Origin: Thermoanaerobaculia bacterium
GTDB lineage: Bacteria; Acidobacteriota; Thermoanaerobaculia; UBA5066; DATFVB01
Assembly (NCBI GenBank): GCA_035717485.1
Contig: DASTIQ010000315.1
Location: 471 to 64,470 of the forward strand
Length of the DNA: 64,000 nucleotides
Direction of reading: 5' to 3'
How positions within the stretch are numbered: the stretch's first letter is position 1; the number at the start of each line of letters is the position of its first letter. A program made the translations under genes and the position numbers. Below, piece by piece: positions 6,932-56,528 of this stretch. The notes below the pieces were generated by a model. That model made no database searches and had not been told where the DNA came from. It saw nothing but the letters and a program-made list of their open reading frames with translations.

Positions 6932-7014
6932 CGCAGACTACCTCCAGGGGGAAGAGGAGCACTTTCCGTGCCACGGCGGCTCAAGTACAGCCGCACGAAT
7001 GAGATAATCCCGCC

Positions 7015-51004: not shown

Positions 51005-51134
51005 GATTGCCGATGCGAGCCCGCCGATGACGGCGCCTCGTGCCACCGGCGGGATCGAAGAAGGACCGGGCTTCGCCGGTTGAGGTCATCGCCAGCGCGG
51101 CTCGGGCCGGGGGGAAGGTGGGTGGCCCGCCGGG

Positions 51135-52124
51135 TCAACCATGGGTCTGGTCCACTCCGGCGACGTCCGCCGCCGGTCGGATCGTGTAGAGAGTCTCTCC
51201 TTCCACGGGATGGCCCGCGTCCGCCCAGCCGTCGAGGCCTCCCTCGAGCGGCCGCACCTTCATGAATCCCTTGTCCATCAGGAGGCGAGCCACACGGGCC
51301 GCCGAGGCTTCGTTCGGTCAGGTGCAGTAGAGGACGATTTCCCGGTCGAGAGGGAGCTGAGCGATCGAGGAGTCGATCTCCTCGAGGACGAGGCGCACCG
51401 CTCCCGGGATCCGCCGCGGATCGCCCTGGACGGCGGCCCGGTTGCGGACGTCGACGATCACCGGCGCCCTTCCGGCGTCGATCAGGCTGCGAAGCTCCGC
51501 CACGGAGATCCGCGCCATCCGGAGGAAGCGGTAGAAGCGCCGCCGTTGCCACCATTTCCACCCGACGAATGCCGCGAGGAGGAGCGCCGCGATCACGAGC
51601 GCCCAGAACCCGAGCCCCTCGAGGAGCTCCGCCACGCGATCGATCGCCCTGTGGAAGACGATTCCGGCGGCCACGCCGGAGCCGGCCCAGACGAGCGCGC
51701 CCCCGGCGTCGAACAGCGCGAAGCGGAGAAACCCGACGCGCAGCGCCCCCGCGAGCGGCGGAGCGACCGTCGAGAACCCGGGGATGAACTTCGCGTAGAG
51801 GAGCGAGCCGACCCCGTGCCGCTCGAAGAGCGACTCCGTCTGGCGCACGCACGAATCGGGAGAAAGCGAGATCCCGCACACCGTCTTCAGGATCCGGTAC
51901 CCGTGCCGGCGTCCGAGGACGTACCAGAGGGAGTCCGCGATCAGTGAGGCGCCGACCGCGAGGGCGAGGAGAGCCACCGTCGACAGACGCCCTCCGGCCG
52001 AGAGCGCGCCCGCCGCGACCAGGGTCGGAATCGCGGGGACCGGGAGACCGAGCTGCTCCAGCAGGACGTTGGCGAAGACGAGCGGCAGACCGTGCCGCGC
52101 GAGCTGCTCGATCAGCGCGTGCAC
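51135..52124 (-). CDS. DedA/SNARE-associated membrane domain fused to a rhodanese domain; in-frame TGA (51318-51320) in the rhodanese active-site loop (possible selenocysteine, or pseudogene)
   Basis: DedA-like N-terminal 200 aa. Rhodanese motif DVRN...IPGAV...IVLYCT-TGA-PNEASAARVARLLMDKGF...GGLDGW continues 60 codons in the same frame to TGA at 51135-51137. The ORF track stops at the internal TGA. Confidence 0.5.
51284..51303 (-). promoter_or_regulatory. Candidate bacterial SECIS-like hairpin 14 nt downstream of the in-frame UGA
   Basis: mRNA GGCGGCC-CGUGU-GGC(U)CGCC: 7-bp GC stem with a bulged U, 5-nt apical loop with G at the second position, about 21 nt from the UGA. Confidence 0.3.
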
Positions 52125-52190: not shown

Positions 52191-52355
52191 TCACTCCTCG
52201 GATTGGCCCTCGTGAGTCTCGGGGTCGGAGGCGGGCTCCGAGTAGCCGCACTTCGAGCAGCGGAAGAATTCTTCCACCAGCGCCCTGTCGATGAGCGGAA
52301 CGAGGAACACCTCTCCGCACTGAGGGCATTTCTTGGCGATTCGCGGCTCGCTCAT
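52191..52355 (-). CDS. Small zinc-ribbon protein (54 aa, CPQCG...CSKCG)
   Basis: GGGGAGG Shine-Dalgarno 6 nt upstream of ATG. Two CxxC pairs. 66 nt upstream of and co-directional with the DedA-rhodanese gene. Confidence 0.4.
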   Translation of the reverse strand: MSEPRIAKKCPQCGEVFLVPLIDRALVEEFFRCSKCGYSEPASDPETHEGQSEE

Positions 52356-52534: not shown

Positions 52535-53215
52535 TCAGCCCCCGCCGGCAGCGGCGATGTGTCGCGCCCTCCGGGCGCGGTGTTCGGCGACCGCGAAGAC
52601 CAGCGTCAGCCAGGCGAAGCCGATCGTCCAGCCGCCCAGGACGTCCGTCGGCCAGTGAACGCCCAGCGCCACGCGGGACGACCCGACGAGGACGACGGCC
52701 GCAAATCCCGTGGCGAGGTACGCGGCGGCATGACGTCCCCGTTTCGCCGAGGCGGCCGCAAGGCCGGCGACCGAACCGAAGAACGCCGCGGACAATGCCG
52801 AATGGCCGCTGGGAAACGAGTATCCGATCGCGTGGGCGAGCGGATCGAAGAGCCCCGGCCGCGCCCGATGGAAGAAACGCTTGAAGAGCTGCACCCAGAT
52901 GACCGCGCCCGCAATGGACACGAGGAAAGCCCGAAGGCGGCGCCACGCCCGGATCCGGCCGAGGAAGAGAGCCACCGCGAGCGATCCGGCGGCGATGAAG
53001 GTCGTGCTCCCGAAGAAGGAGACGACGCGGAGGGCCGCCGTGAGCGGCGCGGCGATCCAACCGTGCACGCCGAGCTCGATCCGGCGATCGAGCGGCCCTC
53101 CGAGAGGAAGGCGCGCGGCCGCCCGCGCGAGCGCGGTGAAGGCGACCGCGAGAACGGCCGCGATCGCGAAGAGGCTCTCCGCCTGATGCCAGGCGCGCGG
53201 ACTCGGGCGCGTCAC
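52535..53215 (-). CDS. PAP2 family phosphatase (phosphatidic acid phosphatase type 2 / undecaprenyl-PP phosphatase-like)
   Basis: Motifs KRFFHRARP, PSGHS and SRVALGVHWPTDV in a multi-TM protein. Confidence 0.7.
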   Translation of the reverse strand: MTRPSPRAWHQAESLFAIAAVLAVAFTALARAAARLPLGGPLDRRIELGVHGWIAAPLTAALRVVSFFGSTTFIAAGSLAVALFLGRIRAWRRLRAFLVSIAGAVIWVQLFKRFFHRARPGLFDPLAHAIGYSFPSGHSALSAAFFGSVAGLAAASAKRGRHAAAYLATGFAAVVLVGSSRVALGVHWPTDVLGGWTIGFAWLTLVFAVAEHRARRARHIAAAGGG

Positions 53216-55642: not shown

Positions 55643-55729
55643 TGGTGGGGGCAGAGAGATTCGAACTCTCAAGGGATTGCTCCCAACAGGTCCTAAGCCT
55701 GTCGCGTATGCCAGTTCCGCCATGCCCCC
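55643..55729 (-). tRNA. tRNA-Leu (anticodon TAG), type II with long variable arm, CCA encoded
   Basis: Manual fold: acceptor GGGGGCA/TGCCCCC. Anticodon stem ACAGG/CCTGT with loop CTTAGGA. Long variable arm. T-arm GAGAG-TTCGAAT-CTCTC. 87 nt. Confidence 0.85.
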
Positions 55730-56452: not shown

Positions 56453-56528
56453 TGGTGAGGCGTCAGGGAATCGAACCCTGAACCTAGAGATTAAGAGTCT
56501 CTTGCTCTGCCAATTGAGCTAACGCCTC
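56453..56528 (-). tRNA. tRNA-Lys (anticodon CTT), CCA encoded
   Basis: Manual fold: acceptor GAGGCGT/ACGCCTC. D-arm GCTC-AATTGGCA-GAGC. Anticodon stem AGAGA/TCTCT with loop CTCTTAA. T-arm CAGGG-TTCGATT-CCCTG. 76 nt. Confidence 0.85.

Follow-up and report, generated by a model that had tools for sequence, protein, structure and literature searches.

A DedA-rhodanese fusion gene of soil Acidobacteriota with a candidate selenocysteine codon and a SECIS-like hairpin

Does the in-frame UGA within the rhodanese domain of a DedA-like gene end a 268-residue protein, or is it decoded as selenocysteine (Sec) within a longer one? The question is raised by a locus on contig DASTIQ010000315.1 (assembly GCA_035717485.1) of a Thermoanaerobaculia bacterium, from which a stretch of 64,000 nucleotides (positions 471 to 64,470 of the forward strand), here called the window, was analysed; the window features given below with coordinates lie on its minus strand. 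The conventional open reading frame (ORF; 52124..51318, GTG start) encodes 268 amino acids, the last of which are EIVLYCT, and is closed by a TGA at 51318..51320. In the same frame 60 further sense codons follow (PNEASAARVARLLMDKGFMKVRPLEGGLDGWADAGHPVEGETLYTIRPAADVAGVDQTHG) before a second TGA at 51137-51135 ends the read-through frame. A preliminary description of this DNA had put the gene forward as a candidate selenoprotein with a hairpin resembling a selenocysteine insertion sequence (SECIS), and its coordinates and translation hold. Comparison with relatives makes it highly probable that UGA codon 269 is decoded as Sec, with the downstream hairpin acting as a bacterial SECIS (bSECIS) element, to give a protein of 329 residues. 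The full gene would then occupy 51135..52124, with the GTG start at 52124, 329 codons and a stop. The candidacy is borne out by TGA at this codon in 65 of 90 compared sequences and Cys in the other 25, by an intact downstream frame, and by a conserved, covarying hairpin; once homologues are compared, the combination of an in-frame TGA with this specific hairpin lies far beyond chance.

Pfam domain searches, made with Cys in place of the stop, locate a DedA/VTT membrane domain at residues 30-149 (51678..52037; PF09335, 45.2 bits, cut-off 33.9) and a rhodanese domain at residues 207-302 (51219..51506; PF00581, 48.1 bits, cut-off 22.2). The latter spans the TGA at codon 269, as expected from the initial proposal of a DedA-rhodanese fusion with the UGA inside the rhodanese domain, so that conventional gene calls break the domain. 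Gene callers sometimes give the C-terminal part of the rhodanese domain as a separate gene, either as a spurious stand-alone ORF of 52 amino acids from a GTG (51135..51293) or in a 47-amino-acid version; on one ENA contig (L093) the calls are of 268 and 47 amino acids, the second at L093:2053-2196. UGA is the usual stop in the window, where it ends 25 of 37 long ORFs rich in G and C at third codon positions (GC3), and it also ends 35 of the 62 read-through ORFs of the family. A GC3-based scan of the window for further genes with an in-frame TGA returned only artefacts of antisense frames and adjacent genes, a weak negative in that the scan missed the target gene itself.

Homologues from a collection of 5.8 billion proteins form 35 clusters at 62-100% identity, all of which end in ...LYCT, 32 of them at exactly 268 amino acids. 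One truncated database copy is named "VTT domain-containing protein" by NCBI, and an exact copy of the 268-residue product is present on an independent ENA contig. Full-length homologues (n = 85; 54-61% identity) are also found; 80 of these 85 carry the motif YC[T/N/S]-C-P[N/S]E, with Cys at the position of the window's stop, and the full-length Cys homologues are single polypeptides of 303-334 amino acids. The inferred Sec codon is thus aligned with the second Cys of YC-x-C-P-N-E.

At the DNA level 89 related loci (9 genomic and 80 metagenomic) were compared with the window, 90 sequences in total; this sample is skewed to Sec forms, and the metagenome query was built from Sec forms. The alignment of orthologues at the UGA column, which the preliminary description had proposed as a check, shows TGA in 65 sequences (64 loci and the window), TGC in 13, TGT in 12, and TAA or TAG in none. 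The TGA is conserved down to about 51% protein identity, the 64 other loci having been assembled independently and ranging from 51 to 90%. Among its carriers are three metagenome-assembled genomes (MAGs) of Acidobacteriota, one Planctomycetota MAG and many soil metagenomes. One of the Acidobacteriota MAGs, OY970224.1 (locus L001), is a complete 3.84-Mb chromosome that has the TGA form in an orthologue 88% identical to the window gene and in synteny with it; further MAGs with the TGA form are CAVXOA01, CAWCDE01 and JBKPTH01.

Each TGA form continues for 39-62 codons into PNEA[S/T]AARVAR...G[F/Y]..VRPL.GG..W, retaining the rhodanese motifs RPL-GG--W downstream of the UGA, and no frame breaks occur in 62 loci. 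Entropy downstream of the TGA is 0.44, 0.50 and 1.28 at codon positions 1, 2 and 3, respectively, a pattern equal to that of the upstream coding sequence and of the Cys forms, and variation beyond the hairpin falls mainly at third positions. Judged by this pattern of variation, the frame downstream of the TGA is translated and under purifying selection.

Separately, one Sec-form locus (L068:3170-3259, plus strand) has an extra in-frame stop about nine codons before the Sec codon (...GLGP*RELVVYCT*PNE), and may represent a decaying copy or an assembly error.

The position of codon 269 within the rhodanese fold was examined by alignment and modelling. Ungapped alignments to the rhodanese structures 6mxv and 1yt8 (domain 2) place this codon on the canonical catalytic Cys. 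Of the full-length Cys homologues P0026 is the closest, and in its AlphaFold2 (AF2) model (pLDDT 88.5) the central strand ends at Y266 and the next helix begins at A273; C267-T-C/U269-P-N-E therefore makes up a six-residue active-site loop. A Foldseek search with this model recovered rhodanese domains only, with 3ilm, 6mxv and 5ve3 at probability 1.00. Residues 267 and 269 are both invariant, the former as Cys and the latter as Cys or Sec. Cys267 (TGC, 51324..51326), which is constant in the alignments of both Sec and Cys forms, stands two residues before Sec and completes a C-x-U motif. The loop U-P-N-E-A-S has a Pro and an acidic Glu and is devoid of Arg and Lys, and so does not conform to the loop consensus of thiosulfate sulfurtransferases (GlpE/PspE-like), C-R/x-x-G-x-R-[ST], with its basic or hydrogen-bond-donor residues. 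The GlpE model NF001195 scores 26 bits against a cut-off of 102.

The presence of Sec at this site in other rhodaneses, stated in the preliminary description, is confirmed by a known family. A 2026 catalogue distinguishes five Sec-rhodanese forms, of which form 3, "CxU", is NCBIfam NF041203, "rhodanese_LYCAU". This family is the best NCBIfam match to the window domain (86.1 bits, E = 1.5e-24); its members, which are 38% identical to the window domain over 101 residues (E = 1e-19), have the same fold and carry Sec at the same position, two residues past an invariant Cys. The family reads VLYC-A-U-PNE-x-TSA and the window VLYC-T-U-PNE-ASAA, and the shared motif L-Y-C-x-U-P-N-E takes the form LYCTUPNE in the window and LYCAUPNE or LYCAUPSE in the members. 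The window domain nevertheless scores under the 115-bit equivalog cut-off, whereas genuine members reach 167.9 and 185.1 bits. The family consists of stand-alone proteins of about 126-150 amino acids, reported from Desulfobacterota. Members in the deep-Sep supplement, of about 130-150 amino acids, read VLYCAUPNE[Y/A]TSA, and TKB26178.1 and two relatives have hydrophobic N-terminal leaders resembling signal peptides. In contrast, the window domain is the C-terminal part of a protein from high-GC soil Acidobacteriota, behind a polytopic DedA domain of about 200 amino acids. Because of its score below the cut-off and its different architecture, we do not file the window protein in NF041203.

The SECIS-like hairpin is located at 51282..51304, or +16 to +38 counted from the T of the TGA. 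It consists of a 5' arm (51303-51297), the apical loop CGUGU (51296-51292) and a 3' arm (51291-51284) with a one-nucleotide bulge at either U 51288 or C 51287. The structure GGCGGCC-CGUGU-GGC(U)CGCC (51303-51284) is the minimum-free-energy (MFE) fold of its stretch, at -11.8 kcal/mol. From an ungapped alignment of 63 distinct Sec-form sequences, RNAalifold independently predicts a stem-loop with the pairs +18:+35, +19:+34, +20:+32, +21:+31, +22:+30 and +23:+29, in which C+33 is bulged and the apical loop extends from +24 to +28. The pairing register originally described, with G+20 paired to C+33 and U+32 bulged, is valid for the window, but applies to only about half of the family, the consensus being +20:+32 with C+33 bulged.

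Standard pairs are formed in 91.5% of the cells of an eight-pair version of the stem across the 63 Sec forms, a value matched by none of 500 shuffles. Slid registers pair in only 24-47% of cells, and in the 25 Cys forms the same columns are paired in 51.5%. The pair +20:+32 links two synonymous third positions of Ala codons and occurs as C:G in 27 sequences, G:C in 19 and G:U in 8; C+20 is without exception accompanied by G+32, and the pair has switched class in at least nine independent events on the protein tree. Other synonymous sites in the hairpin are nearly fixed, position +23 having changed 0 times and +29 once, compared with 10-21 changes at most third positions outside and 3-7 at a few of them. 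Entropy at +23, +26 and +29 is 0, 0.5 and 0.12 bits in Sec forms versus 1.0, 1.87 and 1.22 bits in Cys forms, and the two sets are equally divergent outside the hairpin. At the protein level, AARVAR hardly changes among Sec forms, whereas Cys forms differ there (AAQVAK, AARAAK, AAMLAE); by this comparison, the hairpin RNA also constrains the protein sequence.

Three Sec forms break the consensus pairing. Two of them have a perfect stem without a bulge at the same position, one of seven base pairs with a six-nucleotide loop (L020:5805-5867) and one of six base pairs (L026:2995-3057), in both cases with an amino acid change in the otherwise invariant AARVAR. In the third (L082:5802-5864), a stem of seven base pairs including one G:U is possible from the sequence, but the MFE fold is different.

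The bSECIS layout of Zhang and Gladyshev, as summarised in PMC13188914 (Fig. 2), comprises an apical loop of 3-9 nucleotides on an upper stem of 4-16 base pairs, a G within the first two loop positions that is usually followed by G or U, a distance of 16-37 nucleotides from the UGA to the apical loop, and an MFE of -7.5 kcal/mol or lower. The hairpin agrees with this general layout on all four counts, as the preliminary description had proposed. The loop has five nucleotides, and the stem is among the shortest that the range allows: in the family consensus it has four base pairs, a one-nucleotide bulge and two to four more base pairs, and in the window three base pairs, a bulged U and four base pairs, or alternatively four base pairs that include a G:U pair. 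The second loop position is G, followed by U or G, in each of the 63 Sec forms (CGUGU in 55, CGGGU in seven and CGUGG in one). The spacing from UGA to loop is 21 nucleotides and does not vary, since none of the 63 has a gap in this region. The window hairpin lies below the energy limit, as do the folds of 62 of the 63 Sec forms, which are no better in this respect than shuffles at such GC content.

In common with the fdhF element of E. coli and bSECIS elements in general, the hairpin is a coding-region stem-loop directly 3' of the UGA, with a single bulged nucleotide, a small loop that has G then U near its start, and a spacing within 16-37 nucleotides. There is no sequence similarity to the fdhF SECIS, however; the bulge of the fdhF element is on the 5' arm whereas it is on the 3' arm here, and the loop here starts 21 nucleotides past the UGA.

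Several observations weigh against decoding of this UGA as Sec. At 69% GC the hairpin is no more stable than chance predicts (z = +0.06 to +0.30 relative to dinucleotide shuffles), nor is its stability greater than under synonymous resampling, where the fraction of sequences at least as stable is 0.40. Sec and Cys forms fold equally strongly (-11.6 versus -11.9 kcal/mol, p = 0.79), the Cys forms by other folds. With shuffles, resampling and the Sec/Cys comparison all null, folding energy was rejected as evidence for a SECIS. True compensatory change is confined to a single base pair; the remaining pairs either do not vary or change in one partner alone, and the codons that the hairpin covers are themselves conserved. 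The hairpin was matched by no Rfam family, either at gathering thresholds over the whole window or at E values up to 10 over 51100-51400, where the matches are chance ones to microRNAs and frameshift elements only. The secondary structure of the P0026 model makes Cys267 the first residue of the loop, while sequence spacing puts residue 269 on the catalytic Cys; the nucleophile may be either residue. Finally, a tRNA scan and tblastn searches with E. coli SelA, SelB and SelD found no selA, selB, selD or tRNA-Sec in the 64-kb window, in which the only tRNAs are tRNA-Lys and tRNA-Leu, and a scan of 60 of the 63 distinct Sec-form loci likewise found no tRNA-Sec.

The same tblastn queries, applied to 709 kb of related sequence, gave a sole match, a selD homologue at L079:6853-7947 (plus strand). 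It lies 0.9 kb downstream of the Sec-form DedA-rhodanese gene on the same strand, is 38% identical to E. coli SelD and has AIRS and AIRS_C domains. An in-frame TGA at 6937-6939 of this locus aligns with Cys17 of E. coli SelD (TGG*ACK versus GAGCGCK) and is followed by a hairpin of -18.5 kcal/mol, so that the gene looks like a classic Sec-containing SelD; on this evidence, Sec is apparently decoded in at least one carrier of the TGA form. Adjacency to selD was found only here among the loci examined. Selenoproteins have been documented in Acidobacteria (PMC1794560).

A nonsense mutation that leaves a pseudogene, and an error of sequencing or assembly in the window, were alternatives named at the outset, and a single sequence would not by itself decide against them; gene callers and NCBI do annotate the 268-residue product. 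However, the same TGA, never replaced by TAA or TAG, recurs in 64 other independently assembled loci, which keep both an unbroken downstream frame and the hairpin. The exact 268-residue product is also encoded on the independent ENA contig, and a systematic artefact shared among the assemblies is excluded by their sequence divergence. The chance that the window's TGA arose in either of these ways is close to nil. Because the TGA is conserved, the frame intact and UGA a normal stop, we regard pseudogene, sequencing error and altered code alike as excluded. Termination might instead be the main outcome, such that a 268-residue DedA protein with half a rhodanese domain is functional and the remainder is made separately or occasionally, for example in a selenium-responsive switch between isoforms. 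Sec insertion in bacteria is inefficient, some truncated product is to be expected from it, and the GTG-initiated ORF of 52 codons downstream could be read in the same sense. Yet in each of the 65 Sec-form sequences one frame runs on through the TGA, such a split would fall within the active-site loop of the rhodanese domain, and the Cys forms are single polypeptides. Moreover, the strong purifying selection downstream is in phase with the upstream ORF, which a separately initiated peptide would not need. We consider this explanation very unlikely.

Recoding of the UGA as something other than Sec is also improbable, if marginally less so. The residue could be Trp, Cys or Arg inserted by near-cognate or suppressor read-through, or Cys carried by tRNA(Sec) under selenium shortage; the hairpin would then be a generic stimulator of read-through. 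Such a reading would accommodate a window without Sec machinery and a hairpin without an Rfam match, and the identity of residue 269 as Sec is a prediction from sequence comparison. Against it, the residue that homologues have opposite position 269 is specifically Cys, a correspondence that is the hallmark of Sec, and the same motif carries Sec in NF041203. The hairpin fits bSECIS geometry, down to the loop G followed by U or G, and one Sec-form locus adjoins the Sec-type selD.

Decoding as Sec is accordingly the reading that we carry forward, and the gene product is best explained as a 329-residue inner-membrane protein in which a basic linker helix joins a DedA/VTT domain at the N terminus to a rhodanese domain at the C terminus. 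Proteins of the same architecture with Cys in place of Sec are known. NCBI gives such fusions the name "DedA family protein/thiosulfate sulfurtransferase GlpE"; they have the same two domains and the same length at 54-61% identity. Examples are P. aeruginosa PA1209 and the fusions of COG0586 to PF00581 (PMC10127716), which have no assigned function. They share with the window protein an invariant cysteine pair (C83/C92), a likewise invariant KWWxRRRFY linker and the equally invariant YC-x-C-PNE site, and differ in having Cys at the position of the UGA and in their lack of the conserved hairpin. TsoB (NF045694, "rhodanese-like form 5") likewise has a Sec-bearing rhodanese domain joined to a redox or transport module of the membrane, but its partner is DsbD-like and it has two Sec in a UxxxxU motif; the match of the TsoB model to the Cys-form homologue P0026 is marginal, at 14 bits against a cut-off of 805. 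No DedA/VTT selenoprotein is mentioned in PMC13188914, in the text of the BSepDB paper, in deep-Sep and its supplements, or in NCBIfam 20.0, and an earlier report elsewhere is possible. New bacterial selenoprotein families are reported regularly. The CxU kind of Sec-rhodanese is known; what appears to be new here is a distinct, membrane-fused subfamily of soil Acidobacteriota.

The DedA domain is divergent. The DedA models NF008102 and UptA match below their cut-offs, UptA with 27-33 bits against 250-300. In E. coli YghB, residues E39, D51, R130 and R136 are reported to be essential for flipping of undecaprenyl phosphate (UndP; PMC10127716). In the window protein E39 is kept (E23) and R130 is conservatively replaced (K112), while D51 is lost to a hydrophobic residue (I32) and R136 to S118 or Ala, so that the four charged residues expected of an UndP flippase (YghB/UptA) are not all present. 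This alignment is provisional, as identity to YghB is only 27-31%. A basic loop of the DedA domain carries a cysteine pair, C83...C92 (C-G-ISLSPDS-C; 51849..51878), that is kept unchanged in every Sec and Cys form and is missing from E. coli YghB; on this distribution the pair is specific to the rhodanese-fused subfamily. Between the two domains is a strongly basic linker (KWWQRRRFYRFLRMAR, within window residues 170-205). By the positive-inside rule, both the C83/C92 loop and the KWWQRRRFYRFLRMAR linker would be cytoplasmic, and the four conserved chalcogen residues would then share one side of the membrane.

Two further observations concern these residues and their sidedness. C83 and C92 may form a thiol relay with the C-x-U site. 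In addition, the leaders of the LYCAU proteins suggest export, and the basic linker suggests that the fused domain is cytoplasmic; the same active site may thus work on opposite sides of the membrane.

The mechanism that we infer, from actual Sec insertion and SelB binding to topology, substrate and chemistry, would proceed as follows. By analogy with E. coli fdhF, the hairpin 16-38 nucleotides downstream would recruit SelB-GTP-Sec-tRNA(Sec) to a ribosome paused at the UGA, and Sec269 would be placed in the loop C267-T-U269-P-N-E, two residues past the invariant Cys. Sec almost always marks a catalytic redox residue; its presence at residue 269 would mark out the loop as the place of catalysis and favours membrane chemistry of a redox or chalcogen-transfer kind. 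This might take the form of a Sec-centred cycle through a selenenylsulfide with Cys267 or through an Se-S(e) adduct, a tentative suggestion. The chemistry would take place at the membrane, probably on the cytoplasmic face, beside the DedA domain. C83/C92 could possibly serve as a relay for the cycle, and the cycle could be tied to the movement of whatever is carried by the divergent DedA domain.

A further conjecture, which we hold to be doubtful, starts from a DedA domain in which two of the four UndP-flippase residues are missing and an invariant pair of Cys has been acquired. The Sec form of DedA-rhodanese may be a membrane-integral chalcogen-handling enzyme, rather than a flippase with an accessory domain. 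Sulfur or selenium would be moved across or along the membrane, caught by the C-x-U site as an Se-S or Se-Se adduct, and passed to cytoplasmic acceptors such as SelD. If true, this would provide the first function for DedA-rhodanese fusions and a link to a DedA-selenite phenotype in Cupriavidus, which was reportedly described by Ledgham et al. in 2005 (cited in PMC10127716) and is said to be unexplained.

Every copy found in the protein collection ends at LYCT, and what is probably a selenoprotein is consequently listed as a truncated protein. With such annotation, a clade of membrane selenoproteins from soil Acidobacteriota and at least one Planctomycetota MAG would be missing from selenoproteome counts, even though the product, a polytopic membrane protein, is abundant in soil metagenomes. 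The putative Sec also points to a catalytic site in the wider DedA-rhodanese fusion family, PA1209 included. The alignment of 63 sequences describes a well-defined SECIS variant of high-GC soil bacteria (CGUGU loop, 3' bulge, 21-nucleotide spacing) that could improve SECIS models.

Midpoint-rooted neighbour joining gave a tree in which a large assemblage of Sec forms branches deeply. The Cys forms mostly belong to one clade, whose two genome-derived members are Gammaproteobacteria MAGs, and to a Cupriavidus group at the midpoint root. One Cys form with TGC (L076) is nested among the Sec forms and retains the hairpin sequence GCGGCCCGTGTGGCGCGC at L076:2921-2981 (plus strand); this nesting and the kept hairpin look like a recent Sec-to-Cys replacement with a fossil SECIS. 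A family with deep Sec lineages, a Cys clade and such a nested Cys form would be a clean system for studying the exchange of Sec and Cys.

The gene neighbourhood is conserved over short distances only. The zinc-ribbon gene noted just upstream on the same strand is present as a small Cys-rich ORF (CPQC...CSKC; 52191..52355) that matches Zn_ribbon_RPB9 with 24.3 bits, under the cut-off of 25.2. It is not a family-wide partner, being conserved only in the close relatives L001 and L003. Two genes upstream is a PAP2-family phosphatase gene (52535-53215; PF01569, 70.6 bits), conserved only in the closest relatives L001, L003 and L011; published work describes fusions of DedA to PAP2. The idea of a conserved operon partner was rejected: the zinc-ribbon ORF, PAP2, an M20 peptidase and a convergent DUF885 gene are common only to the nearest relatives (L001, L003, L010 and L011), and unbiased clustering of neighbours yielded subclade-specific neighbours only. 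About 4-5 kb upstream of the gene are tRNA-Leu(TAG) at 55643-55729 and tRNA-Lys(CTT) at 56453-56528, and the same pair flanks the orthologue in OY970224.1, in keeping with synteny between the two loci.

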